Source: a virus
DNA: 64,000 nucleotides
Virus record (IMG/VR): IMGVR_UViG_3300045988_148900
Coordinates: 64,001-128,000 of that record
Direction: 5' to 3' (one strand)
Shown: in pieces, positions 1,554 through 61,013 of the stretch
Numbering within the stretch: the stretch's first letter is position 1
How the letters are laid out: each line of letters starts with the position of its first letter
The notes under the pieces: model-generated
What the model was told of the DNA's origin: nothing
Databases searched by the model: none
What the model saw: only the letters and a program-made list of their open reading frames with translations
Made by a program: the position numbers and the translations under genes

Positions 1554-3122
1554 CTACTCGGGAATAGCGGACGGAGCACCCGCGTCGGCAGCTCCGGCGG
1601 CTAAAGCAGCCCCAGCAGCTATCTCCTCAGCATCCATGCCTGCAGACGCTGCAGCCTCTGCGGCATCAAATCCCGGAGGAGTGGGAACATCTCCCGACGC
1701 GGAAGATTCGGACTCCAAGAGCCCCTCAGCGGCAGCCTGCTCGCGGTCAATAGCGTCAAACTTATCGTTCACGTACTTGCGAATCTCCTCAAGCCAACTC
1801 TGAATGGAATGAAGATTGGACGTATCATCCAACAAAGACTCCAAAGACGAAATGCGAGCTAAAGCCTCCTCGCGTGTCTCACTCGCATTCAAAGTATCAA
1901 AGAAGGCATTCGAGAAATCTGCAAAATTGGTGAGCGTATCAACAACATCTGAATCCTCGGACGTAGGAAGCTTCACGAGACGGAAAAAAACATCCGACTG
2001 CTCCAGAACATCTGCCGTAGACCGAAACCAATGATTGATAGTATCCTCCATCAAAGACCTACAAGACGCTACCATGCGAGAGTAACGAATATCACCTCTA
2101 ATCAACGAAACCGTGTTGGAGTCAAGCTGCTGATTGAAATCGGCATACGTCTTAGGAAAACGCATGGCAAGAAAAACGCGCCCAAGAGTGTAATCCAAGT
2201 CGGCCATCTCCTTGATATCAAAGGACGGAATATCCGTCACAATCTCAGGCTTACCAACACCCTTGCGATGAGGATGTACGGGAATGCCATCATCGAAACT
2301 CGCATTAGGCGTCATGGTAGTCTGTAACGACAGAGAATCTGCATTCAAAGTCTGAGAAATGTCATCAATAATCTCCTGAGTCCGATCACCCTGAGACGTG
2401 CCAACGTCAACCGTAGCAAACCTAACAACTCGAGCAAGCTTCTGACGATAACTATACATCGACCGCTCAACAGCGTACAAGTCCTGAGCTACAGAACTTA
2501 TATTCTTTAACTGAATAGGCTCCGGAATAACCCTATACTTAATCTCCGACCAATCAATTCCGTCAACATCCTCGGAACTCATATCTGACGTGATAATCTC
2601 CAAAGACGACTTCGAGTAATTCAAGAAGACCAATACATTCTCAAGAACGTGCCCATTACTATCATAAATGATAATAGTACCATCCCGACGCATATAAATA
2701 CCAACGTCCTCAATAAATGGAACAAGCTTAGCCTTCTTCCGGCGGGCAACAGCATCATCATATGTATGCAGAACATACATAGACAACCCCGTCTTCAAAA
2801 GATCAATAGCAGTCCACTTAGCAATACCATTCAAGGCGTCGCATAAGTCAGAAACACGCTGCCGCAAGACAACACTCTTGATAGTATCCAAACCCGAAAC
2901 ATAGACAGGAGAACTACCTATACAAACATCGTCGGCAGTAATGTCAACCATCGAGTTGATGAAGTCATGAGTCTCAATAGCATCAGCAATCCCTCCAGTC
3001 TGATTCACCGTCGACGACTGACCGTTAATACCCGTGTAAGTCTTACGAAGCGTGACACCCGGAGCAATGCCAAGAGTCCTGCCAATCATCAAACCAAAAG
3101 CCTGCAACGCGCCAGTATACAT
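1554..3122 (-). CDS. probable portal protein
   Basis: 522-aa ORF downstream of terL with an acidic/Ala-rich C-terminal tail. Size and position fit a portal, but no diagnostic motif is readable by eye. Confidence 0.5.
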   Translation of the reverse strand: MYTGALQAFGLMIGRTLGIAPGVTLRKTYTGINGQSSTVNQTGGIADAIETHDFINSMVDITADDVCIGSSPVYVSGLDTIKSVVLRQRVSDLCDALNGIAKWTAIDLLKTGLSMYVLHTYDDAVARRKKAKLVPFIEDVGIYMRRDGTIIIYDSNGHVLENVLVFLNYSKSSLEIITSDMSSEDVDGIDWSEIKYRVIPEPIQLKNISSVAQDLYAVERSMYSYRQKLARVVRFATVDVGTSQGDRTQEIIDDISQTLNADSLSLQTTMTPNASFDDGIPVHPHRKGVGKPEIVTDIPSFDIKEMADLDYTLGRVFLAMRFPKTYADFNQQLDSNTVSLIRGDIRYSRMVASCRSLMEDTINHWFRSTADVLEQSDVFFRLVKLPTSEDSDVVDTLTNFADFSNAFFDTLNASETREEALARISSLESLLDDTSNLHSIQSWLEEIRKYVNDKFDAIDREQAAAEGLLESESSASGDVPTPPGFDAAEAAASAGMDAEEIAAGAALAAGAADAGAPSAIPE

Positions 3123-5913: not shown

Positions 5914-6034
5914 ACATCTAAAGAAAAGCCCCAAAGGAGGAGGGCCTGCACTCCCTCACTCCCCGGAGCAATACACATCCATCAATCTAATCTACTATCT
6001 GGCGAAATCCTCGTGCAGAAGGACTATATAAAAA

Positions 6035-6559
6035 CTAAGAACGCAAGTCAGCCAAGAAGTCATTAAGACCCGATAAATGATCATACTCGTCCGCCTGAAT
6101 CTCCTTAACCAGCCGCTCCGTCGTGTAGTCACCCAAATCCCGAGACAAATCAATAATCCGCTGATAATGACGAATAGCGCACTCCTCGGACTCGATATTC
6201 TGCTCCAGTATAGGAACGAGCTCCGAAACATTCTCCGGCGTGTGATACTCACACTCAGCTGTCGACTGAATATTGGCAAAGTCGAAAATGTGCGTCGGAA
6301 CATACTGAAGCTCATTCATACGATTGAGAAGCTTCACAAAATGATCATCAAGCTCATCTTTAGCTGTAGCATTGAAAAACTCCTCGATATTGGCTCGCTC
6401 CTGACCCACAAGATAAGGAGAGACGACACGATAAGCGTAAAAAGCGAGAATTTCTTCTGCCGCTGCAATTTCGAGCTCATTGCAAATAGACAGACGAGAC
6501 TCGTCGGGCAAAATATCATCTAACGAGTCGGAAATATACGAAGCAAAATCCCTGACCAT
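6035..6559 (-). CDS. bacterioferritin-like (ferritin-like di-iron) protein
   Basis: C-terminal 174 aa of track ORF 6035..6865, starting at the ATG at 6559. The helices align by eye with Bfr: AAEEILAFYAY / KDELDDH / ESEECAIRHY / EIQADEYDHL (ExxH ligand motifs). Confidence 0.65.
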   Translation of the reverse strand: MVRDFASYISDSLDDILPDESRLSICNELEIAAAEEILAFYAYRVVSPYLVGQERANIEEFFNATAKDELDDHFVKLLNRMNELQYVPTHIFDFANIQSTAECEYHTPENVSELVPILEQNIESEECAIRHYQRIIDLSRDLGDYTTERLVKEIQADEYDHLSGLNDFLADLRS

Positions 6560-6629: not shown

Positions 6630-7430
6630 CTACAGGTCGGCAAACTCGTCGAAATCCGACACACCACTCGACGCAGGAGTAGAACTAACAGACTCCGCAA
6701 CACCCGGAATCGACGAATCGAAGCCATCAATAACAGGAGGTTCCGGTAGAGTAATACCAGCCGGAGCAGGCTCCAAATAATCAGCAGGCTCATCAGTAGC
6801 CTTAGGCTCAATAGCATCCTGACGAGGAGCAACCGTCTTGCCTTTAGGCTTACGAACCTTCTCATCCGGAACCGCAGTAGTCGACGTGCCTACAACATCG
6901 GCAGGCTGCACAGCCGAGAATTCATCATAAGAAACATGATCCTCCGAATCAGCGGAACCAGCAGGAGCGTCGAAGCCATTCTCCGAACCAAACTCACGCT
7001 CAATAATAGCTACGAAACGATCCTTCTCCTCACGAGTCTTGAGACTCGAGAAAAGAGCAAGCAACCGACGATCCTCAGGAGAGAACGTGTCCTCAGGGAA
7101 CAACGACTTGCCCTGAGCAATCTTAGCCTCCAACTTCACAACCTCAAGAACGCGCTTCATGAGAATGTCGTACTCAACAGAACACTCCACACGAGTAAGC
7201 GTAGGCAACTCCTCAACAAGAAGAGTGTTGTAACGCTCATCCAAAGCACGCATCAAAGACATGCTCTCCTCAGCCATACTATGCATCTTCTGCAACGCAG
7301 AACAAGCCATAGTAGAGACCCCAAGCTGAACCGCCCGAAGCGCAACTCCCTGAGCCTGCTCGGACTCCATACCAAGACGTACCAACTGCTCCAAGTTCAT
7401 AACAGGAGCCAAAGACTTATTATCCTCCAT
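6630..7430 (-). CDS. hypothetical protein
   Basis: 266 aa, ATG verified. Helical N-half and acidic Pro-rich C-half. Tightly packed between the sigma-like gene and the ferritin-like gene. Confidence 0.65.
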   Translation of the reverse strand: MEDNKSLAPVMNLEQLVRLGMESEQAQGVALRAVQLGVSTMACSALQKMHSMAEESMSLMRALDERYNTLLVEELPTLTRVECSVEYDILMKRVLEVVKLEAKIAQGKSLFPEDTFSPEDRRLLALFSSLKTREEKDRFVAIIEREFGSENGFDAPAGSADSEDHVSYDEFSAVQPADVVGTSTTAVPDEKVRKPKGKTVAPRQDAIEPKATDEPADYLEPAPAGITLPEPPVIDGFDSSIPGVAESVSSTPASSGVSDFDEFADL

Positions 7431-7439
7431 GAAAAAAAA

Positions 7440-8000
7440 CTAAATATTATTGCAAAAATCTACCATCATATCCAAAACAGCCTCCGTAGCCTCCAACTCC
7501 GACTGTCGCTTATGAAGACCACGCTGGCAAAACACAAGCAACGACGGCACTAAACGCCGCGGAACATCAATACGTGAGAAACCAGCATCGCCAGAAAGAT
7601 AAGGAAGCAAATCGGAAAGCTCCGACGGTACAATCTCCGGAACCTTACCCTTCGACGGCGAAACAGACTCAAGCCTATCTTCACGGTTCAATCTACGTAA
7701 CAAATTGCCAGCCTCATTGCGAATCATCGTATAAAGATAATTATACGGTGACATCGACTTATCGAAACGATCGTGACGCTCCATAATAGTCATCAAAGCC
7801 TGACTACGCAAATCGTCAAAGTCCTGATAATACTTGCCAAAGTGAGTATTCAAAACAATACTGATAACCTTGTGAATCTCGTCAAGCTCCCGAGACGTAA
7901 CCTCAGAAACAGGATGAAGATAAAACTGAAGAAGTATCTTCTTATCTATCGCAACACGAGCGGTAGAAGAACTGACAAGTATCTCTGACGAATCACACAT
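7440..8000 (-). CDS. sigma-70 region-2-like protein (gp55-like size and architecture)
   Basis: 186 aa. DDLRSQALMTIMERHDRFDKSMSPYNYLYTMIRNEAGNLLRR follows the sigma-70 region 2 pattern. No recognisable region-4 HTH. Confidence 0.55.
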   Translation of the reverse strand: MCDSSEILVSSSTARVAIDKKILLQFYLHPVSEVTSRELDEIHKVISIVLNTHFGKYYQDFDDLRSQALMTIMERHDRFDKSMSPYNYLYTMIRNEAGNLLRRLNREDRLESVSPSKGKVPEIVPSELSDLLPYLSGDAGFSRIDVPRRLVPSLLVFCQRGLHKRQSELEATEAVLDMMVDFCNNI

Positions 8001-8245: not shown

Positions 8246-8271
8246 AGGTGATTATATACAATTCTACACTG
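8246..8271. repeat. terminal inverted repeat, tnpB 3' side (copy A)
   Basis: AGGTGATTATATACAATTCTACACTG. Includes the tnpB stop codon and is identical to the copy B repeat at 50837-50862. Confidence 0.8.
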
Positions 8272-9442
8272 CACATATTGGCGTTTCATCGACTTCGTAA
8301 CCTCCGTCTCCACGCCCATCGAACCGTCCCACCGACGGCAAAAACATCGCTAAACCCTCTCTCAAAATGTTGCTGGCGGCATTTAAGTCTCGGTCGTGGA
8401 CCGTACCACATTGTGGACACGCCCAAGTCCTATTGCCTAACGTAAGACCGTCGTTCTTGTAGCCGCAACACCCACAGGTCTTGCTACTCGGGAAGAAACG
8501 GTCGATCTTTAAAACCGTCTTACCCAACCAACGCGCCTTATATTCCAAGACACGAACGAACTCAAACCAACATACACTCTGGATGGATTTAGCTAATCTA
8601 TGGTTACCCATCATGCCCTTAACATTCAAGTCCTCGATAAAAATGGCTTGGTTCTCACCTAAAATACCGTTGACTGCATGATGGATAAAGTTATGAATTA
8701 AATTACGTTTCTTAGCATATAGTTTATTGATTTTTAATCTTATCTCCGCACGGCGACGACTGCCTTTCTGTCGTCTTGCTTCTATTTTCTGCAAGCGGGA
8801 TATCCGACGATCGATGACGTCCGCGAAACGCGGATTAGGTATCTTGCGACCGTCGGAGGTAACCACAAAGTCCTTCAAACCCAAGTCCAGCCCGACACAC
8901 TTGGACTGGCTTGTGATAGGCGTGGGTTTAAGCTCAGGAACACCCGTCTCGACAAGGCAACTCACCCAAAAGAGTCCGCAGCCGTCGCAACTTACCGTGA
9001 CGTTACGTAACTGACCCGCAAACCGACGATCCTGCTTATAGCGTACTAAACCAATCTTCGATAGTTTGATGTGACTACTTTCCTGATCGACACCACAATG
9101 GGTGGACGGAAAACGACATGATAGCTTGCTCCGATGCTTCGACTTAAACCTTGGAAAACCCTGATGCGTCCGGAAAAACATCCGGTAAGCACTATACATA
9201 TCTCGAACCGACTGAACCAAACAAACCGCAGGAACGTCATACAACCATGCGTACTCGGACTTCAGGCCCGTCATCAAGTTAATACATTCGAACTCCGACA
9301 AGGACGTCTTATCTGTCTTGTAAGCCTTAATCTTAATATCAAGCGTAGCATTATAAACAAACCGACAACAACCGAACGTCTGACGCAACATTGCCTGCTG
9401 CGTCTTGTTCGGATAAAGCCGATATTTATAAGCACGCTTCAT
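8264..9442 (-). CDS. tnpB: TnpB RNA-guided nuclease family protein
   Basis: 392 aa. RuvC triad contexts GLDLGLKD / FIEDLNV / HDRDLNAA, and zinc finger CGCCGY...CPQCG. ATG verified. Confidence 0.9.
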   Translation of the reverse strand: MKRAYKYRLYPNKTQQAMLRQTFGCCRFVYNATLDIKIKAYKTDKTSLSEFECINLMTGLKSEYAWLYDVPAVCLVQSVRDMYSAYRMFFRTHQGFPRFKSKHRSKLSCRFPSTHCGVDQESSHIKLSKIGLVRYKQDRRFAGQLRNVTVSCDGCGLFWVSCLVETGVPELKPTPITSQSKCVGLDLGLKDFVVTSDGRKIPNPRFADVIDRRISRLQKIEARRQKGSRRRAEIRLKINKLYAKKRNLIHNFIHHAVNGILGENQAIFIEDLNVKGMMGNHRLAKSIQSVCWFEFVRVLEYKARWLGKTVLKIDRFFPSSKTCGCCGYKNDGLTLGNRTWACPQCGTVHDRDLNAASNILREGLAMFLPSVGRFDGRGDGGYEVDETPICAV

Positions 9443-13133: not shown

Positions 13134-13175
13134 AACGCAAAAGTAAGTAGAATAAAATTGATAAACAAATTGTAT

Positions 13176-17391: not shown

Positions 17392-17399
17392 CAAAGATA
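17392..17399 (-). promoter_or_regulatory. host-type -7 box TATCTTTG
   Basis: Minus-strand TATCTTTG lies 19 nt upstream of the ATG at 17372 and directly after the terminator at 17451-17487. Confidence 0.4.
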
Positions 17400-17450
17400 A
17401 AAACGTTAAATTAATAAAACAAATAAAAACCATGGAAAATTGCTTCTATC

Positions 17451-20919: not shown

Positions 20920-20979
20920 AACTATACAAATTTTTGTTTTGACAAAGCAAAGTTAATTAAAATAGTGCAAACGTCCAAA

Positions 20980-26045: not shown

Positions 26046-26053
26046 CAAAGATA
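26046..26053 (-). promoter_or_regulatory. host-type -7 box TATCTTTG
   Basis: Minus-strand TATCTTTG about 40 nt upstream of the ATG at 26004. Confidence 0.35.
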
Positions 26054-26093
26054 ATTAATGTTATTTAATTGTCAAAATGTAGAGGCCATAAAA

Positions 26094-26796: not shown

Positions 26797-26816
26797 CCCA
26801 CGGCTAAAGCCGCGGG
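26797..26816 (-). repeat. IS right-end subterminal hairpin
   Basis: CCCGCGGC TTTA GCCGTGGG on the tnpB sense strand. It straddles the tnpB stop codon. Confidence 0.7.
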
Positions 26817-27934
26817 ATTCTTGACTCAGACATGGCCGCCACCGAGGTGGGCTTACTACCACTAATCAACGCGTCCATGCCCGAACGCCGAATGTTTAAC
26901 GCTGCGTTGAGATCACGATCATGATGCGTTCCGCACTGCGGACAAAGCCATGAACGGTCAACCAACCGAAGCTCTTTATTAACGTACCCGCATCCACTGC
27001 ACAGCTTGCTACTCGCAAACCACTTATCGACATGCACAACGTTCGTGTTGTACTTAGTAGCTACGAACTCCAAGCGCGACACGAATGATGCGTGGCTGAG
27101 ATCCGAAACCTTACGGCCCCATAAGCGACGCATACCATCAAGGATCAACGTCTCCAAGCAGATCGTAGAATAACACTGACAAAGATCATGCGCTAAGCGC
27201 CACTGATAATCGTCACGATGGTTGCTGATCCCACGATAGAGCCTGCTGAGTTCAAGACGCCGACGGCGGTGGTTATTTGAGCCTTTGACGGATTGGCTCA
27301 ACCGCCGATGCGCCTTACGGATATCACGAAGCGTCTGCTTAAAGAATTGAGGGTTCTCGTAACTGCGCCCGTCGGATAACGTCAAATACGTCTTCAAGCC
27401 AAAGTCAATGCCTACAACCGCACCATCATGTGTCGTGTTGCTGGATTCTACCTTAGCGTCGGTTACGACGTACAACCAAAAGTCGCCGCACGGAGCACGC
27501 TTAACGCGAACCGTCTTTATCGCACCATCAAAATTACGGGATTTATGAAATTTATAAGTCTTCTTAAGTCTGTTGATTGTGAAGCAATTGCCGTCTATCT
27601 TATACCCATAATGCAGCTTATAGGCAAAGGATTGAAAATCCGCGGCACATCGGAACTTAGGCGGCCGCTTGGCAAGCTTCTTGAAGAAACGTTGGTACGC
27701 AGCAGCAAGTCGCTGCAACACCTCAATGCTATTGTGTGAGTACAATAGATGCCGCTTGATGCGCTTTGTAAAATGCTTCTGCATGTCAACCGTTGAAACG
27801 TACTTGCCATACATACGGTAGTATCTACGTTGAAGCGCAAGTGCGTGGTTCCATACAAACGCACACTCCCGAAGCATCCGGTCCAACCATACGGTCCGAT
27901 GTGTCTTGTAGAGTTTGTATTTGTATGTCAACAT
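26804..27934 (-). CDS. tnpB: TnpB (IS605 OrfB family)
   Basis: 376 aa. GIDFGLKT / ...LETLILDG... / HHDRDLNAALNI, and zinc finger CSGCGY..CPQCG. A TATATTTG box lies at 27954-27961. Confidence 0.9.
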   Translation of the reverse strand: MLTYKYKLYKTHRTVWLDRMLRECAFVWNHALALQRRYYRMYGKYVSTVDMQKHFTKRIKRHLLYSHNSIEVLQRLAAAYQRFFKKLAKRPPKFRCAADFQSFAYKLHYGYKIDGNCFTINRLKKTYKFHKSRNFDGAIKTVRVKRAPCGDFWLYVVTDAKVESSNTTHDGAVVGIDFGLKTYLTLSDGRSYENPQFFKQTLRDIRKAHRRLSQSVKGSNNHRRRRLELSRLYRGISNHRDDYQWRLAHDLCQCYSTICLETLILDGMRRLWGRKVSDLSHASFVSRLEFVATKYNTNVVHVDKWFASSKLCSGCGYVNKELRLVDRSWLCPQCGTHHDRDLNAALNIRRSGMDALISGSKPTSVAAMSESRIPRL

Positions 27935-27973
27935 TACTGTACTCTTTATGCCACAAATATAAGAATAAAATAC

Positions 27974-27981
27974 TATCTTTG
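27974..27981 (+). promoter_or_regulatory. host-type -7 box TATCTTTG upstream of tnpA
   Basis: Plus-strand TATCTTTG lies 12 nt before the ATG at 27994. Confidence 0.4.
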
Positions 27982-27993
27982 CAAATAAAAACT

Positions 27994-28790: not shown

Positions 28791-28804
28791 GGATATATAA
28801 TTGA
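28791..28804 (-). promoter_or_regulatory. phage promoter-like motif copy (TCAATTATATATCCGGATACC)
   Basis: Core AATTATATATCC on the minus strand, 7 nt before the ATG at 28783. Confidence 0.4.
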
Positions 28805-28822: not shown

Positions 28823-29554
28823 CTACTCGTCTAAGGGCAAGCAAGACGGCTCTACTGACAGGGAGGCAACAGGAATACCCGTCAAACGAGCATCGTGGTA
28901 CCAGCATAAGTCGTAAGACGACGATAAGGACAAAAAGCCCGGCGACGCGGCATCTACCACTAACACGGAGGAGTCAAGAGTAATGCAAACCTCCGTAACA
29001 TCCAAAGAGAGAGCACACGAGGGAACAGCCCAACCATACAACACACTAAACTCCTTAAGCAGACACCTGCGGCCCGAAAAAACACGACCCGTAAGAACTC
29101 CATTCTCCGAAATCCAAACACTACCTACAGACCACCCAGAACTCTTAACAGGATGAAGCTCTAAAGACAAGTTACCCAGACGACGAATAAGAGTAAAACG
29201 ACAAGTAAAAGCGTCAGTAACGTAAGGACGAAAAGAGTAAAAGGACCGATCCCGGAAACAACTGCTATAGCGTATGTGCTGAAAAACACCCGAGCCGCAT
29301 TCATTCCACATGGAGTCCTCGAACGTCAAAGGACTAAACGGACAATAAGAACGCGCCCGAGACACATAGTCAAGCAAAATACCAACATCGCTATAACTCT
29401 CACTAAAGCTATCTACCAAAGACAAAATAGCCAAAGCAGAACTACGCAAAGCCGCATTAAACGAATCGTTGAAAGCAAGACCGCTAAGGTCGAACTCCTG
29501 ACGCGCGTAAGACGTAAAACCGCCCGACGAACGTACTACAACATCAGTATCCAT
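28823..29554 (-). CDS. hypothetical protein
   Basis: 243 aa, ATG verified. Confidence 0.6.
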   Translation of the reverse strand: MDTDVVVRSSGGFTSYARQEFDLSGLAFNDSFNAALRSSALAILSLVDSFSESYSDVGILLDYVSRARSYCPFSPLTFEDSMWNECGSGVFQHIRYSSCFRDRSFYSFRPYVTDAFTCRFTLIRRLGNLSLELHPVKSSGWSVGSVWISENGVLTGRVFSGRRCLLKEFSVLYGWAVPSCALSLDVTEVCITLDSSVLVVDAASPGFLSLSSSYDLCWYHDARLTGIPVASLSVEPSCLPLDE

Positions 29555-29562
29555 ACCAACAA

Positions 29563-30153
29563 CTATTTAACACGATGGGCAACACCGTCACTTATCTCGT
29601 AACAACGATCACACATGTCATCCGTCAAACGAGCGTCATGCGAAATCAACAAAATATCAAAATCAAAATCAGAGCATACCTTACGAACAAAAGACAAAAA
29701 ACGACCATAATGAGACGCACTGACCTGAGTCCACTGCTCGTCCAAAAACATAACACGACGGCTACCAAGCTTCAAGATCAAGTACAACGTGAAAACGAAG
29801 CTCACAACCGTAATAACACCACCACTCTGAGCAGTCGTCAAATCGCTAACGCAACCGTTACCGTAGTCCAGAACGAAGCAACCTCCGTCACTATCATAAA
29901 CAACCTTAGCATCCAAACCAAAGATGCTCTGAACTCCTACAGTAGCCAAGTCCTCGCACTGACGCAAACTCGAACACGTAAGCAACTCCTTAGCCTGACG
30001 TAAGTAATCCTTGCAACTCTGACATAACGTAAGCTCCGACGATAAAGAAGCACGCTGACGCTGGTAGCTATCAAGACGACTCGAACTCGACGACGCTAAC
30101 TCCCTGCAACGCCGATAAGACGAAAGAAAGGAACTATAACGGGACAAATCCAT
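29563..30153 (-). CDS. SbcC/Rad50-like ATPase, C-terminal lobe
   Basis: Signature-like AQSGG, Walker B RVMFLDEQW, H-loop LLISHD. Confidence 0.7.
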   Translation of the reverse strand: MDLSRYSSFLSSYRRCRELASSSSSRLDSYQRQRASLSSELTLCQSCKDYLRQAKELLTCSSLRQCEDLATVGVQSIFGLDAKVVYDSDGGCFVLDYGNGCVSDLTTAQSGGVITVVSFVFTLYLILKLGSRRVMFLDEQWTQVSASHYGRFLSFVRKVCSDFDFDILLISHDARLTDDMCDRCYEISDGVAHRVK

Positions 30154-30162
30154 AACCTAACC

Positions 30163-30543
30163 CTAAAAGTCGTCAGAACCAGCAGACGCAAAAGACCCGG
30201 AAGCACCCCCAACCCCGCCTGACGGAACGGACGGAGAACCAACCGACGGAACACCCACAACAACTGTCTCCGACGCATCTGACGACGACAAAGACGCAAA
30301 CTCACGCTCCCAAGACTCTATCTCCGATAAACGACTCGACAACTCACCCTCCAAACGAACACGATCCGAATCCAAACGCGACAACTCACTCTCCAAAGAC
30401 TCAACACTCGGACAAGAATCAAAACCAAGACTTATACACAACTCCGAAATCCGACCGTCAAGCTGACTCAAACGACCCTCAGCATCCCGAAGCTTCTGCT
30501 CAACAACTGACCGACGACGAGCTATCTCCACTAAATCAACCAT
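30163..30543 (-). CDS. coiled-coil protein (middle piece of the split SbcC/Rad50 locus)
   Basis: 126 aa from the ATG at 30543. Heptad-like LSQLDGRISEL...LESELSRLDSDRVRLEGELSSRLSEIE, with a Ser/Gly/acidic tail. Confidence 0.55.
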   Translation of the reverse strand: MVDLVEIARRRSVVEQKLRDAEGRLSQLDGRISELCISLGFDSCPSVESLESELSRLDSDRVRLEGELSSRLSEIESWEREFASLSSSDASETVVVGVPSVGSPSVPSGGVGGASGSFASAGSDDF

Positions 30544-30578
30544 AAAAAAAGATATATTAAAAATTAAAAACCAAAACA

Positions 30579-31778
30579 CTATACGTCCGACGAACTGCAA
30601 CCCAAAGAACCGCCACACAACGGACAAACAGCCGACGACGTCAAGACACGAAGACCTTCTATATGAGACGAAACGTCACCCCGGGAACGAAGCAAACCAA
30701 GAAGATCGGACAAAACACCACGACGTGACGAAATACTAACCATAGAACGACAGACAGACGAACAAACACCGTAAGACGAAACACCAACCCCAAGACTCGA
30801 AACAACTCCCGACAACGACGAACGACAAGAAACACTGCTCCGCAAAGACAACAAAAGGGAAATACGAGCAAGAAGAAGGCCGTAAGAACCGTCAGAACCT
30901 AAGTCAAAATAATAGCTCGTATAAGCTGATAAAACACGACGACCGCAAGAAAGGTAAGACAATAAAAAAACGCGACTCGAAGCAATACCTCGAAAATAAG
31001 AAACCCCTACAACGCGACGACAAACGGACGAAAGACTATCAAAACAAGACAAGCAAGACCTATAACCACAGACAACCCGAAACAACGACGAACGACGACC
31101 CAAAAGCAACAACAGCTGATAAACACAAGACCGACGTGACGAAACCGTGCCCAAAGACGATAACATATCCGATACAACCGAAAACAACGACGACCCAGAC
31201 GATAAGCAACCACGAAAACCCTCCAAAACAGCACGCTCCGTGTCAACCAAACTAGCCAACATACTCAAACCTCCCCGAAGCTCCGACGAACGACGACGAA
31301 GACCGTCTACGCACAAACCTAAGTCGTCCAAACCACGACCACTACCCAAGAACTCGCGAACCCTACTCTGACTATAACTCAATAACAACGGACTACGAAA
31401 CTGAGGCCAGAAACTCAACGAAACGATATCGCTACCGCTGCCCAAACTCCCGAAGCCAAGAAACGACGAAACACAACCCGGAACGTCGCGGCCAGGCTTA
31501 TCGTAAACAACACCGTCCAACTCGTAACGAGCACCAACCTTATTCCCCTTGACAACCCGAAGAACAGGACCAGCAACGCTGAAACGAACGCTAACGATAC
31601 TACAAGAACAACCCCACCGAACGCAACGACTACTCCACCGATTAGTAAAAGCACTAACCAAACCCCGGAACATACTACTCTTACCGCTGTAACTCTCACC
31701 TCGAACAACCGTAAGACCCCGAACGCCTATACGAACATCGCGGCAAGCCAAGTAATCCTTAACTATCAGATCAACCAT
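30579..31778 (-). CDS. SbcC/Rad50-like ATPase, N-terminal lobe plus coiled-coil arm ending at a CxxC hook
   Basis: Walker A VVRGESYSGKSSMF. A long S/R/L/V/G-rich arm follows. Ends ...SAVCPLCGGSLGCSSSDV (CxxC zinc-hook-like). Confidence 0.7.
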   Translation of the reverse strand: MVDLIVKDYLACRDVRIGVRGLTVVRGESYSGKSSMFRGLVSAFTNRWSSRCVRWGCSCSIVSVRFSVAGPVLRVVKGNKVGARYELDGVVYDKPGRDVPGCVSSFLGFGSLGSGSDIVSLSFWPQFRSPLLLSYSQSRVREFLGSGRGLDDLGLCVDGLRRRSSELRGGLSMLASLVDTERAVLEGFRGCLSSGSSLFSVVSDMLSSLGTVSSRRSCVYQLLLLLGRRSSLFRVVCGYRSCLSCFDSLSSVCRRVVGVSYFRGIASSRVFLLSYLSCGRRVLSAYTSYYFDLGSDGSYGLLLARISLLLSLRSSVSCRSSLSGVVSSLGVGVSSYGVCSSVCRSMVSISSRRGVLSDLLGLLRSRGDVSSHIEGLRVLTSSAVCPLCGGSLGCSSSDV

Positions 31779-31784
31779 AAAACT

Positions 31785-32051
31785 CTACAAATAGAGATAC
31801 AACCAGGAGAAACGACGACGAAGCCGTAAACTAACACGACGATTAAAAAGCTCCTCGTGAACTACAAACGACGCGTAATCAGACGAAGCGACATACACGA
31901 AGTCAACGGCGCCAACAAGGCGACGATAAACACGCAGGCCAAACAAACGCCAGTAAACATAATACTTAATATGACCCCTATAAGGAGAAACCGAAGAACC
32001 ATCGGGCGGACGACAAACAACACTCGCAAAAACAAGATCACTTATTACCAT
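31785..32051 (-). CDS. hypothetical protein
   Basis: 88 aa from the ATG at 32051 (MVISDLVFASV...). The upstream part of the track ORF crosses the repeat array and is rejected. Confidence 0.45.
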   Translation of the reverse strand: MVISDLVFASVVCRPPDGSSVSPYRGHIKYYVYWRLFGLRVYRRLVGAVDFVYVASSDYASFVVHEELFNRRVSLRLRRRFSWLYLYL

Positions 32052-32132
32052 AGACGAAAAATTTGTAAACAAATCAACGTAAAACAAAAAATACACCGCA
32101 AAGCACGAAGCATGCCTCCTACAAAAAAAAAC

Positions 32133-32315
32133 GGATATAGAATTGCTCCAAGCGGAAAAACTAAACTCTAAAATTCTGGATATAGAATTGCTCCAAGCAT
32201 GCATAAACACCCTAAAACAAGAAGCTATACACAAAATTCAGGATATAGAATTGCTGAAAGCAGAAACTAAAACAACACACAACAGATAAATCTCGGATAT
32301 AGAATTGCTGAAAGC
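32133..32315 (-). repeat. four direct copies of GCTT(TC/GG)AGCAATTCTATATCC (variant of the phage motif)
   Basis: Copies at 32133-32153, 32178-32198, 32241-32261 and 32295-32315. Start-to-start spacing is 45, 63 and 54 bp. Confidence 0.85.
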
Positions 32316-32419
32316 AGGCACTAAACAACACATAAATACCTGAAGCTGCACTTCATATAAACGCCGAAAGGCGCAGAAAACCAAAAGAATAGCTTGTTGA
32401 TGGTGCCCAAAGGCTACGC

Positions 32420-32460
32420 CAGAAGCACTCAAAAACCAGAAGCACTCAAAAACCAGAAGC
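32420..32460. repeat. 17-bp tandem repeat, 2.4 copies
   Basis: Plus strand CAGAAGCACTCAAAAAC twice, followed by CAGAAGC. Confidence 0.85.
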
Positions 32461-32470
32461 GAGGAAACAG

Positions 32471-32520
32471 CCCCAGACACCCGGACCCACACCCCCGGGC
32501 CCACCGCCCCCTAAAATCCC
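32471..32520 (-). other. G-tract cluster (G-quadruplex-capable) on the coding strand
   Basis: Minus strand GGGATTTTAGGGGGCGGTGGGCCCGGGGGTGTGGGTCCGGGTGTCTGGGG has seven runs of at least 3 G within 50 nt. Confidence 0.6.
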
Positions 32521-32521
32521 T

Positions 32522-32556
32522 AAAAGAAAAGAGCTCATCTAATAATAGATAAGCTC
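32522..32556 (-). terminator. rho-independent terminator after the recA-like gene
   Basis: Minus strand GAGCTTATC-TATTATTA-GATGAGCTC (9-bp stem, 1 mismatch) followed by TTTTCTTTT. Confidence 0.6.
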
Positions 32557-32595
32557 CTAAAATCTACATTTACGTATCTTTTGGCATATGCGTGA

Positions 32596-33672
32596 TCATA
32601 GCTCCTGAATCACCCCGTCAGAATCTACCGGAATCTCTGGAGAGGAGACAACTGACGTCATAGGGGAATATCCCGCAACGGACTCAGACGTGCCTCCCGT
32701 ACGCATAAACTCATACAACCGAGAGACAGACTCCTTCGGCATGCCATAGAGCTTCTTCTGACCAACGTACTTCTCGTCCGCCCACGGCATAAAGTAAGAA
32801 ACACCTGACTTCCGAATAACGCCTGACTCCAAGGCCATATCAATAACCGCGTAACGCTTGTCAACACCACGACCAAAAACCAGCTTCACCTTCTTCCGTA
32901 CAAACGGCTTGCAAAACTTATTCTTCGTAGTCTCCATGTAAAGCTCAACACCGAAAATCTCGTCAGGATTAGACGTCTCCGAACTCGGATCATCCTTCAA
33001 CTTCGTACCAACGGAAAGCTTCGTAATAATGTCAGGGACGTGCTGAGCCGCAAATCCGCCCGCCTGACGCTCTTTCGGAGCGTAAGGGTTAGACATACCC
33101 ATCTGAAGATTCGCACGCGCGTGAAACAGCCACAAAGACGAAATATTGGCATCCGCAAACCAGTTCTTAATAGCAGGCAGCAAATTCGCCTCCTGAAGAG
33201 CCTTGACACCCGGACGGCAGTCCCGAACAGACAGATTCTTGTCCGAATAAGCGGCAACCTCCGACATACTATCAATAATAACCAAACGGAAACCCCCATC
33301 ATCACTGAGAACCTTGCAAACGTCCTCAAGCTGACCATAATCACGAACCGTAAGATGGACCAATAAACCATCCATCTTAAACTTAGCCAAACCGAAAGCG
33401 GTAATCTGAGAGTCATTCCAAGCACGCTCCGTATCAATAATAGCAACCTTATAACCCTGACGACAGAAGCTACGAGCGATCTGGGCCGATATGGAAGACT
33501 TGCCACAGCCCGCGACCCCCCATAAGCCCAGAGAATAACCTACTGGTACTCCACCACCCCAAATCTCATTCAAGGCATCAATCCCTGAATCAATAAAGGT
33601 ATCAGGATTATCAACCCCATACTTCGCCAAAACATCCGACAAGGACAAACCTTCCTTCTCCTTTTTTGCCAT
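32596..33672 (-). CDS. RecA-family recombinase/ATPase (UvsX/Sak4/RadA-like)
   Basis: Walker A GVAGCGKSS and Walker B LVIIDSMS. 358 aa. Confidence 0.75.
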   Translation of the reverse strand: MAKKEKEGLSLSDVLAKYGVDNPDTFIDSGIDALNEIWGGGVPVGYSLGLWGVAGCGKSSISAQIARSFCRQGYKVAIIDTERAWNDSQITAFGLAKFKMDGLLVHLTVRDYGQLEDVCKVLSDDGGFRLVIIDSMSEVAAYSDKNLSVRDCRPGVKALQEANLLPAIKNWFADANISSLWLFHARANLQMGMSNPYAPKERQAGGFAAQHVPDIITKLSVGTKLKDDPSSETSNPDEIFGVELYMETTKNKFCKPFVRKKVKLVFGRGVDKRYAVIDMALESGVIRKSGVSYFMPWADEKYVGQKKLYGMPKESVSRLYEFMRTGGTSESVAGYSPMTSVVSSPEIPVDSDGVIQEL

Positions 33673-33777
33673 AAACTTAAGTTGTTAAATAATTATTGAA
33701 ATGAACCCCGAAACGAGGAGCGTGCAGTCTACACGCTTTTAATTTAGAATCTTCAAACCTTTTGACCAAAATTAGCC

Positions 33778-33821
33778 CCTAAATTTAAGCTCCACCCATT
33801 GGGAAAAAGTGGAAATTTAGG
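33778..33821. repeat. imperfect 44-nt inverted repeat upstream of the recA-like gene
   Basis: CCTAAATTT..TCCAC-N13-GTGGA-AATTTAGG. Confidence 0.5.
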
Positions 33822-33836
33822 ATAATCTGATTGCTT

Positions 33837-33986
33837 TTATAAATCTGAGAAGAACAACCAATCGTCATCCTCGATACATACCGACGGAGTAACAACACCT
33901 TCTTCTGAAGGTGAGGAAAGCACACTATCTGTATCTACAGGAGCTCCTGTAGCCTCGCTATTCACTTCCTTGACCATAACATACAT
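33837..33986 (-). CDS. possible small acidic protein (49 aa)
   Basis: Below the ORF-track size cutoff. My translation is MYVMVKEVNSEATGAPVDTDSVLSSPSEEGVVTPSVCIEDDDWLFFSDL*. The ATG lies 35 nt downstream of a motif variant. Confidence 0.3.
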   Translation of the reverse strand: MYVMVKEVNSEATGAPVDTDSVLSSPSEEGVVTPSVCIEDDDWLFFSDL

Positions 33987-34021
33987 GATGATAAAAAGTT
34001 AGACGCTCGTTGTAAGCACTC

Positions 34022-34035
34022 GGATATATAACCAA
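34022..34035 (-). promoter_or_regulatory. phage promoter-like motif, variant (TTGGTTATATATCCGAG)
   Basis: Core TTATATATCC on the minus strand between the RuvC-like gene's stop and the small ORF. Confidence 0.3.
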
Positions 34036-34107
34036 CCCGCTCCAGAAGCCTGCCTACAAACACATAAAACCACCATCCTAAACCACGAGGAACAAACCCA
34101 CGCATCA

Positions 34108-34734
34108 CTACTCCATGTACCAGCGATTACACAACTGGTAAGTATTCTTATACTCACCACGAAGAATCATATAACCTATATAAGCCAAGATGACCGCAGA
34201 CGCCTCGTCATGATTCAAGCGCAATCCATACTGAGCATCCACCCAGTCCACAATCATCCGCTTACCCTCCTCCTTAGAAATCTTATGAGGAGGCTCCTCT
34301 GGTATCTCGCCTTTCTTGGGCCTTTTCTTGGCTTTCTTTGGCCTTACAATTGAATTGATAGCTGTGGGCGGGATAAGATAAAATGGAACGCTGTGGGCAT
34401 CTTCCGGTGCGTCGTAGGACGAAGCTGACAATACCGACTCAAACTCCGTGTACATCATGCACTGCAAAGGAAGAAGATACGGACCCGATTGGGAACTAAG
34501 TGCACTATATTCCATGAACACAGCATCAAGCCTCACAGCATACTCATCAACCCACTCCTTAATAGCTCGTGCATGCCACACAGCAGCCGGAAAAGAATTG
34601 GAAAACTGAAAAATTGTACCCTCCTTATGAACCTTAGGAACGGAAATAGACGTAGTCGCTATTACTCCATCCTCGGAATCCAATAGACACACCCCCGTCC
34701 GACTAAAAGAACCATCGATACTCATCACTATCAT
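34108..34734 (-). CDS. RuvC-like Holliday junction resolvase
   Basis: SIDGSFSRTG, FMEY and HDEASAVILAY follow the RuvC/RNase H-fold catalytic pattern. Confidence 0.65.
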   Translation of the reverse strand: MIVMSIDGSFSRTGVCLLDSEDGVIATTSISVPKVHKEGTIFQFSNSFPAAVWHARAIKEWVDEYAVRLDAVFMEYSALSSQSGPYLLPLQCMMYTEFESVLSASSYDAPEDAHSVPFYLIPPTAINSIVRPKKAKKRPKKGEIPEEPPHKISKEEGKRMIVDWVDAQYGLRLNHDEASAVILAYIGYMILRGEYKNTYQLCNRWYME

Positions 34735-34745
34735 AGCTCATCAAA

Positions 34746-34778
34746 TTAAAAACCGGAGCACCATCGCTGGCACTCCGG
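34746..34778 (-). terminator. rho-independent terminator
   Basis: Minus strand CCGGAGTGCC-N6-GGTGCTCCGG (6+2 bp stem) followed by TTTTTAATTT. Confidence 0.5.
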
Positions 34779-34806
34779 CACTACACAACAAATATGCTAA
34801 CTCAAA

Positions 34807-35751
34807 TCAGAAGCCACCGTCAATAGGCATGTCACCAAAGGAGTCGTCAATAGGAGTAGCCTCCTCGAAGCCTATAGGACCCGGCATCTGACCAAAAGGC
34901 TGCGACCCTCCCATAGGTGCTCCAGCAGGTGCAGGACCTCCGTAAGATGGTGTCGGAGCACCTCCAACCGGAGGAATAGGCTGACCAGTATAAATCGGCT
35001 GACCCGACTGAGACGGAACACCCGCAGCCTGACCGTAACCTGACGACGGATAAGGCTGAACAGGAGTACCCTGAGGAAGCGAACCCCCATGATAGGGCAT
35101 CGCCGTCGGTGCCTGAGACGGCATCGGAGGAAGCTGCTGAGCAGGAGCCGACGCAGGAACACCCTGCGGACCAACACCACCCGCCTGAGACGACAACCAT
35201 TTACGATAGTTCTCTACCGACTGACTCGTAGTGGCGTCAACCTCCTGAAACAGACGGTCGATAACCTCCGGCTGTGCGCGAAGCTGCTCAAGACGCTGAG
35301 CAATACCCGGAGTAATGTTGAAACCAGCGAGCGTGTACTTCAAGGACGAGACATCCTTCCCGTCCTTATTCTTCCGAGTCTCCTTCGTGAAAGAAACCGC
35401 CTGTGCCTGCGGATTGACCTCCCAAGCACGCAGGTAATCCTGATACTGACTCTGAGTCAGACGAATGTACTCAACCGTGATAGACTCCGAACGAAGCGTA
35501 GCCTGAACAGACTGAATATCCGTATCCAAACGAGCTACCAAAAGAAAGTAGTAATTCGTCGGATTGAGCTTAAACTCAATCATCGACTCCTGATCGACCT
35601 CTACAGACCCGAAACCTGAAACATAAGCAATCTGCTTAGCCAGAACGTCCCGAACAAGAGGAATGAAATAGCCCGTATAACCCGGACCAATGTCGCATCG
35701 CTTGATGCCAAGAGTCGGAATACTCTCACCGAACCCTAATCTCTGTGCCAT
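34807..35751 (-). CDS. SSB-like protein with Q/P/G-rich linker and acidic C-terminal tip
   Basis: 314 aa. The C-terminal linker is rich in P, Q and G. It ends IDDSFGDMPIDGGF, like SSB tails (DDDIPF). Confidence 0.5.
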   Translation of the reverse strand: MAQRLGFGESIPTLGIKRCDIGPGYTGYFIPLVRDVLAKQIAYVSGFGSVEVDQESMIEFKLNPTNYYFLLVARLDTDIQSVQATLRSESITVEYIRLTQSQYQDYLRAWEVNPQAQAVSFTKETRKNKDGKDVSSLKYTLAGFNITPGIAQRLEQLRAQPEVIDRLFQEVDATTSQSVENYRKWLSSQAGGVGPQGVPASAPAQQLPPMPSQAPTAMPYHGGSLPQGTPVQPYPSSGYGQAAGVPSQSGQPIYTGQPIPPVGGAPTPSYGGPAPAGAPMGGSQPFGQMPGPIGFEEATPIDDSFGDMPIDGGF

Positions 35752-35761
35752 GTAATAATGA

Positions 35762-35776
35762 AAAATTAAAAGTTAA
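35762..35776 (-). promoter_or_regulatory. AT-rich upstream motif TTAACTTTTAATTTT
   Basis: The identical 15-mer occurs at 50726-50740. Both lie 7-10 nt before an ATG. Confidence 0.25.
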
Positions 35777-35794
35777 CTACCCAAATCTACGTAC

Positions 35795-36184
35795 CTACTG
35801 CCGCCAATTGTTAGTATATCTCGTCCGCTGAATCAACTCGAAATCTGCCCGCAACTCATTCAAACGTGCTAAGTAAACAAGAACTGCGTTGAGCCGCTCC
35901 TTAAAAGCCTTCTGAATGGCTACGACAGGACCACCTGATAAAACCATCTGAATAGACGAAAGCTCTGAAATGAGCTTGCTGCGCAACCTAACAAGCAAGT
36001 ACTCTGTACTCATGACTATATCATTCTTAGCCGACAAGGATAAGCCCATATTGCCTAACTTATCCAACTCACTGTCAAGCTGAGAAAAAAGCCCACTCAA
36101 CATACGCTCCTGAGCCTCGAACTTCTGCTGACAACTCCTAAGAGCATCAACAACTGAAATCTTAGCTGACCCACTACTCTCCAT
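35795..36184 (-). CDS. hypothetical coiled-coil protein
   Basis: 129 aa, ATG verified. Confidence 0.6.
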   Translation of the reverse strand: MESSGSAKISVVDALRSCQQKFEAQERMLSGLFSQLDSELDKLGNMGLSLSAKNDIVMSTEYLLVRLRSKLISELSSIQMVLSGGPVVAIQKAFKERLNAVLVYLARLNELRADFELIQRTRYTNNWRQ

Positions 36185-46966: not shown

Positions 46967-46982
46967 AACCAATCAATTTAAC

Positions 46983-46996
46983 GGATATATAATTAC
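46983..46996 (-). promoter_or_regulatory. phage promoter-like motif copy (GTAATTATATATCCGTTAAATT)
   Basis: Minus strand, immediately after the terminator at 46995-47036. Confidence 0.45.
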
Positions 46997-47036
46997 AAAA
47001 ATGGTGCCGGAGAAACCTCGTAAGAAACCCGGCACC
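46995..47036 (-). terminator. hairpin terminator
   Basis: Minus strand GGTGCCGG-N18-CCGGCACC (perfect 8-bp stem) followed by ATTTTTG. Confidence 0.5.
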
Positions 47037-47176
47037 TCAAATGCTAAAATACTGCGTCTGGGAAAGAATCAACTACAAGAAATCCAACGCAGCTGCTGAA
47101 ATCGTATCTCACGACAAAAACCCAGCTTAAAATATCATCACTAACATTTCAACATGAGTGATGTCTCGTATACGTA

Positions 47177-47205
47177 AGAAAAAGCTCCTGATATGAATCA
47201 GGAGC
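47177..47205 (-). terminator. rho-independent terminator
   Basis: Minus strand GCTCCTGAT-TCAT-ATCAGGAGC (perfect 9-bp stem) followed by TTTTTCT. Confidence 0.65.
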
Positions 47206-47247
47206 CCACACTACAACAATATGGATCGAACTCGCCTAAGTCCATCC
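47177..47247 (-). ncRNA. candidate short phage transcript (motif to terminator)
   Basis: The promoter-like motif (47248-47261) is followed by ATGGA-N15-TCCAT and then the 9-bp-stem terminator. I found no ORF longer than about 6 codons. Confidence 0.25.
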
Positions 47248-47261
47248 GGATATATAATTGC
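47248..47261 (-). promoter_or_regulatory. phage promoter-like motif copy (GCAATTATATATCCGGATGG)
   Basis: Exact 14-nt core, 15 nt after the ligase stop. No protein gene follows it. Confidence 0.45.
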
Positions 47262-47276
47262 TACATTGAGCCAAAC

Positions 47277-50740: not shown

Positions 50741-50798
50741 ACACCTACTTAAGTCACTGCAAATGTATGTTAATTAATTTAATCTATCAAATAAAATT

Positions 50799-50836: not shown

Positions 50837-52099
50837 AGGTGATTATATACAATTCTACACTGCATATATTGGCGTTTCACCGACTTCGTAACCTCCGTCT
50901 CCACGCCCCTCAAACCGCCCCACCGACGGCAGTATCTCCACTAAACCCGCACGCAAAATGTTGATGGCGGCATTTAAGTCACGGTCGTGGACCGTACCAC
51001 ATTGTGGACACGTCCAAGATCGGTCCTTAAGTGTAAGACCATCGTTCTTATAACCGCAACAACCACAAGTCTTGCTGCTCGGGAAGAAACGGTCGATCTT
51101 TAAAACCGTCTTACCAAGCCACCGCGCCTTGTAATCCAAGACACGAACAAACTCGGACCAACAAATGTTTTGAATGGATTTAGCCAAACTGTGATTACCC
51201 ATCATACCCTTAACATTCAAGTCCTCGATAAACACGGCTTGGTTCTCACCCAGTATCGAGTTGACTGTATGATGGATAAAGTTATTAATCAAATTACGTT
51301 TCTTAGCATATAACTTATTGATTTTAAGTCTTATCTCCGCACGGCGTCTACTGCCTTTCTGGCGGCGGGACTCGATCTTCTGCAGACGCGATATGCGGCG
51401 ATCTATAACATCCGCGAAACGCGGATTAGGTATCTTACGTCCATCGGATGTAACTATGAAGTCCTTCAACCCCAAGTCAAGACCAACGCACTTAGACTGG
51501 CTTGTGATAGGCGCGGGTTTAAGCTCAAGAACACCCGTCTCCACAAGACAACTAACCCAATAACGTCCGCAACCATCGCAGCTCACCGTGATGTTACGTA
51601 ACTGCCCTTTGAACCGACGATCTTGCTTATATTTAATCAAACCGATTTTCGGCAATTTAATGTGACGCGTTTCTTGGTCTACAGAGCAGAAGGGAACCGA
51701 AAATCTACACGATAATTTACTACGATGTTTGGACTTAAACTTTGGGTAACCCTGCTTGATCTTAAAGAATTGCTGATAAGCACTATCCATGTCATAGACT
51801 GCCTGCGGCAGACATACATGCGGAACAACACGCAACCACTCATGCTCTTCCTTAAGACCTGTAATTAACTTGATGCAGTCGAACTTAGACAACGTCGTCT
51901 TATCCGCCTCATATGCCTTTATCTTAGCAGCAAGTGTGGCGTTATAAATGAACCGACAACAATCGAACGACTGACGCAACATCGCCTCCTGCGTCTTGTT
52001 CGGATAAAGTCGGTATTTATAGGCACGCTTCATGATGCTAATATAGTTGTTTATTTACGTCTATGCAAGCTGTTAGTGCAAAATTGTATGTAATCACCT
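50837..52099 (-). mobile_element. tnpB-only element with TIRs and 6-bp TSD (copy B, 1263 bp)
   Basis: Same ends as copy A (50837-50862 and 52074-52099, 22/26 as inverted repeats). Flanked by direct ACATGT at 50831-50836 and 52100-52105. Confidence 0.8.
50855..52033 (-). CDS. tnpB: TnpB RNA-guided nuclease family protein
   Basis: 392 aa. About 85% identical to the copy A protein by eye. RuvC D/E/D contexts and the zinc finger are intact. Confidence 0.9.
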   Translation of the reverse strand: MKRAYKYRLYPNKTQEAMLRQSFDCCRFIYNATLAAKIKAYEADKTTLSKFDCIKLITGLKEEHEWLRVVPHVCLPQAVYDMDSAYQQFFKIKQGYPKFKSKHRSKLSCRFSVPFCSVDQETRHIKLPKIGLIKYKQDRRFKGQLRNITVSCDGCGRYWVSCLVETGVLELKPAPITSQSKCVGLDLGLKDFIVTSDGRKIPNPRFADVIDRRISRLQKIESRRQKGSRRRAEIRLKINKLYAKKRNLINNFIHHTVNSILGENQAVFIEDLNVKGMMGNHSLAKSIQNICWSEFVRVLDYKARWLGKTVLKIDRFFPSSKTCGCCGYKNDGLTLKDRSWTCPQCGTVHDRDLNAAINILRAGLVEILPSVGRFEGRGDGGYEVGETPIYAV

Positions 52100-53157: not shown

Positions 53158-53247
53158 GTTGTGTAGTATAGAGCTGCCAGCAACATCGCCGACAGCACCA
53201 CAAAACTACAAAATAGAATTCAAAAAAACAAAGAAAAGTTGCTAAAA

Positions 53248-60999: not shown

Positions 61000-61013
61000 G
61001 GATATATAATTGC
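61000..61013 (-). promoter_or_regulatory. phage promoter-like motif copy (GCAATTATATATCCGTTAAATA)
   Basis: Exact 14-nt core, 20 nt before the tail fibre ATG and just after the terminator at 61046-61074. Confidence 0.5.

Follow-up and report, generated by a model that had tools for sequence, protein, structure and literature searches.

The four tandem repeats at positions 32133–32315 most probably represent a stack of four phage-specific promoters, a reading to which we give a probability of about 70%, and this stack would close a terminator-to-promoter cassette that is found twice per genome. The repeats lie in a stretch of 64,000 nucleotides, referred to here as the window, in which all long open reading frames (ORFs) are on the minus strand; the features described below are on that strand. 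The array sits in a 544-bp island between the stop codon (32596) of a RecA/UvsX-like gene, whose terminator precedes it, and the ATG (32051) of an 88-residue gene that is followed by a split Rad50/SbcC-like ATPase, in agreement with the context given in an initial annotation of this DNA. That annotation left a choice between stacked promoters, an iteron-type replication origin and a protein-titration array. The first option is favoured by a core that the repeats have in common with single gene-proximal sites, by their gene-matched orientation, by the preceding terminator, by the presence of a phage sigma-like gene and by a syntenic distant clade in which one copy is enough. Missing from the annotation were the separate class of candidate promoters, the larger cassette, its two occurrences per genome and the lack of conservation of the repeat spacing.

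The repeat unit is a 21-mer, GCTT(TC/GG)AGCAATTCTATATCC, present in four exact copies in direct orientation on the minus (coding) strand, as first reported. Along the direction of transcription, the first two copies (32295–32315 and 32241–32261) read GCTTTCAGCAATTCTATATCC, each with a TTTA 20 nt 5′ of TATATCC. The other two (32178–32198 and 32133–32153) read GCTTGGAGCAATTCTATATCC; the third has its TTTA 19 nt 5′ of TATATCC, and the fourth, nearest the genes, is followed by a run of nine T and AGGAGG, with an ATG 19 nt past the motif. In the window, a search for the 15-mer core with up to two mismatches returned 10 minus-strand sites and none on the other strand, against 0.06 expected, and none of 100 shuffled sequences contained as many. 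The one-base difference noted earlier between the core of the array (ATTCTATATCC) and that of the phage-wide motif (ATTATATATCC) is real. The (A/G)AATTT segment said to follow every copy is found after three of the four (GAGATTT, TGAATTT and AGAATTT), and the fourth has a T-run instead. Similarly, the start-to-start spacings along transcription (54, 63 and 45) are all multiples of nine in this window, but the rule does not extend to relatives, in which the repeats are irregularly spaced (42, 44, 49, 55, 62, 153 and 156 nt) and lack helical phasing; we therefore read it as a by-product of recent duplication. The island is non-coding, as had been proposed, since relatives differ in it by non-triplet indels (7 nt between L122 and L124), by a varying number of 17-nt repeats and by the frame-breaking spacings of 42, 44, 49, 55 and 62 nt.

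Reading from recA, the cassette is ordered as terminator, G-rich tract, 17-nt repeats, small hairpin and four promoter-like copies. Its first element is the intrinsic terminator hairpin of the RecA/UvsX-like gene (32529–32558), with a 13-bp stem followed by TTCTTTT. The G-rich tract (32471–32520) has seven runs of at least three G and is the only canonical G-quadruplex motif on either strand of the 64-kb window; the window's most G-rich 60-mer (52% G vs a mean of 27%) falls here. Then come 2.5 copies of a 17-nt tandem repeat (32419–32460), variable in number among relatives, which carries GCTTCTGG boxes; 4 of the window's 12 GCTTC[AT]GG boxes are inside the island. The small GC hairpin CTGCGCCTTTCGGCG (32362–32376), followed by TTTATAT, precedes each sub-array in relatives and, in L119 and L121, has been duplicated along with two motif copies.

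The extended form of the motif found in the array, termed C class, was detected in only four IMG/VR contigs, which belong to the close clade, and each of them holds exactly two arrays. The second cassette lies ~55 kb further along the direction of transcription, after an M23 metallo-endopeptidase gene in the structural-gene region, and consists of the same terminator sequence, a G-rich tract, hairpins and 2–4 C-class copies plus one copy of the A class described below. The two cassettes align over ~475 bp with 69% identity; the intergenic regions upstream of recA and upstream of the second cassette have no significant similarity. In these four close contigs, the C class appears to be used only in stacks, in two cassettes per genome. 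The recA-side array contains the start of contig IMGVR_UViG_3300045988_146455 and the end of contig IMGVR_UViG_3300045988_119172, the pattern that a repeat would produce by breaking an assembly; the duplicated cassette breaks the assemblies of this phage. One of the array-terminated contigs also carries an artefactual G-run (L120 7500–7531).

Between the array and the first conserved gene downstream is a candidate 22-codon mini-ORF (MLRALRCIFCFTLICLQIFRLW; 32045–32113), whose stop overlaps the ATG at 32051 (ATGGTAA). It begins about as far past the last motif as start codons usually do at A-class sites; its lack of conservation in L119 makes its status doubtful. The first conserved gene (31785–32051) encodes 88 residues without a family match, including a WRLFGL.VYRR segment common to a diverged counterpart in L119. 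It is followed by the N-terminal half of the Rad50/SbcC-like protein (30579–31778), with a GESYSGKS Walker A motif and a C-terminal CPLCGG hook, by a coiled-coil ORF (30163–30627) and by an ABC-type C-terminal ATPase half (29563–30153). The N-terminal half has no match in the PDB, and its assignment is based on its Walker A and CPLCGG hook motifs and on the adjoining ABC-type half. At least three ORFs make up the split ATPase; CPLCGG is zinc-hook-like, and 30579–31778 has low-complexity sequence rich in S, L, V, R, G and C in place of a coiled coil, with 69% G/T at codon position 2. The last gene of the unit (28823–29554) encodes a Tad3-like domain protein, whose N-terminal domain matches Pfam Tad3 (E = 8e-13); Tad3 is an inhibitor of type I Thoeris.

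The RecA/UvsX-like gene itself spans 32596–33672, and the window also encodes a RuvC-like protein (34108–34734), a T4-type portal (1554–3122) and a large terminase (3919–5934) whose best hits are about 26% identical. Megablast of positions 30000–36000 against 50,697 reference phage records gave no DNA-level match, and the whole window has no tRNAs. Three TnpB (IS605 OrfB-like) genes are present (8264–9442, 26804–27934 and 50855–52033), two of them 82% identical to each other; the one at 26804–27934 is missing from L119 and L121, which marks it as an insertion polymorphism. In L131, a reverse-oriented element (5100–6309), possibly another TnpB, is found directly past the recA stop, at the cassette start. 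Strand asymmetry is extreme over the whole window, with all genes on one strand, and the third codon positions of most genes are about 45% T, 32% G, 15% C and ~6% A (up to 17%).

Outside the array, the phage-wide motif occurs in the window as eight exact single copies, termed A class, all on the minus strand. Taken together, 12 exact sites and one degenerate site are all on the coding strand, at gene boundaries and intergenic. A candidate ATG is found 7–42 nt past the motif at six of the eight exact A-class sites and 35 nt past it at the degenerate site (34022). Counted over the motif sites as a promoter class, seven have an ATG at 7–42 nt, five of them at 16–25 nt. So short a distance leaves no space for a separate −10 element and start site, which suggests that the motif itself is the core promoter. 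Three A-class sites (61010, 45539 and 22446) have a terminator hairpin 25–45 nt upstream of them, and the array has one at ~225 nt, so the motif is unlikely to act inside upstream transcripts. One A-class motif (28791–28801) is just 7 nt before an ATG (28783), an arrangement that would give a leaderless mRNA unless the true start is further downstream (ATG 28731). Another, at 47258–47248, heads an ORF-free gap of 304 nt (46973–47276), in which it is followed by the hairpin GGATGGACTTAGGCGAGTTCGATCC and a strong terminator (about 47206–47175), with a second terminator before the next A-class motif (46993). The region 47005–47247 folds with z = −3.5, and the gap has no Rfam or tRNA match; the layout suggests that the site at 47258 may head a small RNA of ~70 nt.

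The A and C classes were compared using 19–49 unique A sites and 41–45 unique C sites from the window and its relatives, under two motif definitions. They are separated by three covarying differences, one of which is the one-base variant of the initial annotation. The A-class consensus is nGCAATTATATATCC(G/A)T(T/A)AAAT, also written GCAATTATATATCC(G/A)T(T/A)AAAT, and that of the C class is TTTA-N~6-tGCTTnnAGCAATTCTATATCCnnn(a/t)TTTT. TTT[AG] is found 19–21 nt upstream of TATATCC at 28 of 45 unique C sites and 9 of 49 A sites, against a background of 6%. The C class is a distinct, real class, marked by a −33-like TTTA 19–21 nt upstream of TATATCC and by a downstream T-run. Given this enrichment, its geometry is bipartite and host-promoter-like, with a different −7-type box; in the A class, the proximal box stands alone.

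The window also carries signals of its host. Bacteroidota promoters have the consensus TTTG at −33 and TAnnTTTG at −7, and Bacteroides leaders are SD-less, most 5′ UTRs being ~23 nt long (PMC7366714). The sequence TTTG-N19–21-TAnnTTTG has 11 exact matches in the window, all on the coding strand, vs 1.5 expected; three are intragenic, the others are at 849–880, 13138–13169, 17392–17423, 20948–20979, 26046–26076, 27954–27985, 50760–50791 and 53201–53232, and most of the 11 are directly upstream of genes. SD cores precede start codons less often than background would predict (4 of 45 genes, vs 14%). This depletion and the promoter enrichment suggest a host from the Bacteroidota. The enriched consensus further indicates that the phage has a set of host-type promoters besides its own motif, which points to a host-dependent gene class under putative host-type control. 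A search for the host via TnpB in GTDB genomes returned only matches of 26–36% identity, in unrelated phyla.

The array is conserved in close relatives (at least 92% RecA identity, ~90–94% DNA identity): the recA-side array has 4–5 copies in every one of them whose assembly spans the island, the opposite of the absence or non-conservation that the initial annotation had allowed for. Over both cassettes, close relatives have 2–5 C-class copies per array, and L066 has one extra, identical 54-bp unit. In a more distant clade with 61% RecA identity, each of the 11 loci retains the terminator and a G-rich tract, the latter with another sequence, and carries exactly one copy of GTGCAATTCTATATCC(G/A)TATTTTTG ahead of the gene that follows; the single copy is at the same place and its flanks have diverged. 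One copy in a syntenic clade implies that multiplicity modulates the function and does not define it. In both clades, a G-rich tract (52–58% G) of differing sequence stays between the terminator and the C-class site (in L122, about 7470–7545). The relatives come from metagenome assemblies and include contigs labelled human-gut metagenome. A full-text literature search for the motif matched only unrelated primers.

A candidate reader of the motif is encoded in the window. The phage sigma-like protein (7440–8000; 186 residues) matches Pfam Sigma70_r2 with E = 1.2e-8. Only five clusters of relatives, among which the region-2 residues are invariant, were found in 5.8 billion proteins, which indicates a lineage-specific protein. 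Comparison with PHROGs and the PDB gave no significant match (best PDB E-value 0.76), and an AlphaFold model built from a five-sequence alignment was unusable (pLDDT 47). In a third clade, with a sigma-like protein 55% identical to that of the window, this protein and GCAATTATATATC(C/T) co-occur at an orthologous position: a site GGGGTGGTGGCAATTATATATCT about 20 nt before a giant gene matches the window site at 61010. The 61%-RecA clade has the motif as well. It is this co-occurrence that makes the sigma-like protein a candidate reader. Directly after its gene is that of a 266-residue protein without a family match (6630–7430), whose position is kept in the third clade (L161 9481–10206) and which is a candidate sigma partner. 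As for a phage RNA polymerase, DxDGD, the catalytic motif of multisubunit polymerases, occurs in no coding-strand frame of the window, and the window ORFs scanned have no match to the Pfam RNA-polymerase families; a polymerase encoded outside the window may also be the reader.

In the model that we favour, the C-class copies would restart transcription past the RecA/UvsX terminator and drive a unit of ~3.5 kb, comprising the 88-residue gene, the split Rad50/SbcC-like ATPase and the Tad3-like gene. The invariant AGCAATT(A/C)TATATCC would serve as the start-site-proximal element, a putative counterpart of the Bacteroidota −7 box, with transcription predicted to start 0–16 nt past the motif. Its reader would be the core RNA polymerase of the host, loaded with the phage sigma-like protein. 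To this element, the C class would add the −33-like TTTA at the host-type spacing of 19–21 nt, the GCTTnn extension and a T-rich initial region; the A class would function without a −33-like element. Stacking of 2–5 copies would multiply the frequency of initiation, making for a presumably strong promoter, and the copy number would drift through unequal recombination. The footprint of a sigma70-type holoenzyme is longer than 45–63 bp, and since the repeats are spaced at just these distances, neighbouring copies may compete and not add. The model gives the conserved G-rich tract no role.

Base composition changes sharply at the island. The coding-strand G+T content reaches 0.73 at 30501–31500, the highest value of any 1-kb segment (z = 3.1), vs 0.585–0.61 just upstream of the island, and the downstream operon (28823–31778) is the region of highest coding-strand G+T in the window. 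The largest upward step between adjacent 2-kb segments in the whole window, +0.097, is at ~32550; the largest at A-class and host-type sites is +0.078. In 13 of 13 related loci, which include the second cassette and the distant clade, the maximum G+T step is within a few hundred nt (up to ~600) of the C-class site or sites. The rise is local, extending over about 3.5 kb. Heavy transcription exposes the non-template strand to deamination, and the step is consistent with unusually heavy transcription of the unit. Codon position 3 is already saturated genome-wide (71–80% G/T), and the G+T excess is in positions 1 and 2; as these carry the step, it could reflect weakly constrained proteins and not stronger transcription-linked mutation, and weak protein constraint could add to it.

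The same rise can be read in terms of replication. In what we regard as an unlikely alternative, the island would be a transcription-primed origin or R-loop initiation zone, in which the stacked promoters make primers and the G-rich tract and AT-rich array aid unwinding. The G+T rise of ~3.5 kb on the displaced strand could then reflect single-strand exposure. The array and the next 80 nt have a GC content of 0.33–0.34, vs 0.46 for the window, as would suit unwinding, though intergenic DNA is generally AT-rich. The only G-quadruplex motif of the window is in the island, at a conserved position; the cassette is found among recombination and replication genes (RecA/UvsX, RuvC-like and Rad50-like), and exactly two cassettes per genome would make two origins. 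However, a bidirectional origin should leave a skew shift tens of kb long, and no long-range shift is present: G+T is 0.619 far downstream vs 0.610 upstream, and cumulative GC skew, one of the checks for an origin suggested initially, is monotonic with no inflection at the island. The G-rich tract is upstream of the promoters, behind the terminator, and would be absent from the array transcripts, unlike the G-rich primers of the CSBII and ColE1 type. The second cassette lies in the structural-gene region, after the M23 peptidase gene. Finally, such an origin is compatible with promoter function, to which it adds another. A broader version, to which we give similarly little credence, regards the cassette as a multi-role initiation zone for replication and recombination, combining a terminator-insulated G-quadruplex tract with stacked phage-sigma promoters that open the duplex. 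If true, it would explain why the G-rich tract is conserved and why strand composition steps up locally, and gut Bacteroidota phages would have an origin architecture not described before, at two places in each ~130-kb genome.

More doubtful still is a regulator-binding or titration array, in which the repeats are operator-like sites for an activator, a repressor or as a sigma sink, and transcription starts elsewhere. The extra GCTT-type boxes upstream, which include the island's third of all GCTTC[AT]GG boxes in the window, would fit this idea, as would the 15-nt invariant stretch of the motif, which exceeds most −10-type elements in length. Against it, the A-class copies are too near start codons (as little as 16–25 nt) for a separate promoter downstream, the island has no exact host-type −7 box (TAnnTTTG) that could be the real promoter, and no MotA-like or other activator family was recognised among the ORFs scanned. 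The T4 MotA box itself, suggested by a TGCTT resemblance, was rejected: the spacing to any −10-like element is wrong, no MotA-like protein was found, and GCTT is absent from the site of the distant clade.

An iteron-type origin, where the repeats bind an oligomerising replication initiator as in lambda ori or plasmid origins, we consider highly improbable. The island, AT-rich and non-coding with its four direct 21-nt repeats, has the look of one, but neither the spacing of the repeats (42–156 nt across relatives), nor their phasing, nor their multiplicity is conserved, the syntenic clade making do with a single copy. The motif is not unique to the locus, its core recurring at eight single gene-proximal sites and in a second array; the skew has no inflection, and none of the genes beside the island was recognised as an initiator. 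Least credible of all is a structured RNA, small-RNA array or CRISPR-like array, despite the repeat-spacer-like layout in a non-coding island: there is no Rfam match (the island at a relaxed threshold and the whole window), the array folds no better than shuffled sequence (z = −1.7; 9 of 200 shuffles fold as well), the ‘spacers’ of 24, 42 and 33 nt are unequal and similar to one another, and no terminators separate the units in this window.

The placement of tandem promoters behind a terminator is familiar, and the stacked-promoter cassette would most likely be a new example of it, not an element of a new kind, in an undescribed gut phage lineage. The early promoters A1, A2 and A3 of T7, located at the genome end, belong to the host sigma70 type and differ in sequence. 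The array resembles them in placing same-orientation promoter-like sites within a few hundred bp, ahead of one downstream unit and after a transcription stop or boundary; it differs in that near-identical units of a lineage-specific motif are used, genome-internally, at two loci and in variable copy number. In T4, a truncated phage sigma, gp55, reads the late promoters by recognising a single −10-type box, TATAAATA. The small sigma-region-2 protein of the window and the A class, a single AT-rich box near the presumed start site without a −35 element, recall this system, as do the UvsX-like and Rad50-like recombination genes and the T4-type portal. Compared with T4 late promoters, the box has another sequence and, at 15 invariant nt, greater length, a −33-like element is part of the C class, and the predicted host belongs to the Bacteroidota; coupling through gp33 and gp45 belongs to the T4 system. 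The primary origin of T7 has the tandem promoters phi1.1A and phi1.1B and an AT-rich region, and oriF and oriG of T4 have a promoter and an unwinding element. The cassette shares with these origins promoter-like sites followed by AT-rich DNA near replication and recombination genes; unlike them, the array is not accompanied by a long-range skew change, and initiation at it is only postulated.

The PeSL cassettes of T4-type phages are numerous short elements that flank variable ORFs and contain early promoters of the host type (PMC2839356, PMC4122927). They are similar in that a terminator stem-loop and promoter or promoters form one conserved intergenic cassette repeated in the genome. In both cases repeats are substrates for recombination, seen here as copy-number changes and as assembly breaks in two contigs. 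Unlike PeSL cassettes, that of the window phage is ~500 bp long, includes a G-rich tract and 2–5 phage-type promoter-like sites, and has only two copies. Bacteroidota sigma-A promoters (PMC7366714) resemble the C class in geometry (in the phage, TTTA, N19–21, TATATCCG) and in short, SD-less 5′ leaders, and differ in the −7 box, which in the phage is TAtaTCC, not TAnnTTTG, inside a 15-nt invariant block absent from host promoters.

These results give a first sequence-level picture of transcription in an uncultured lineage of ~130-kb human-gut phages, which appears to use three kinds of promoter: the host Bacteroidota type, the A class and the bipartite C class. The co-occurrence of stacked candidate promoters and a sharp, conserved rise in strand bias makes the cassette a candidate natural readout of transcription-associated mutation. 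The motif and the 186-residue sigma-like protein form a testable pair and, if confirmed, would be a possible orthogonal expression part for Bacteroidota.
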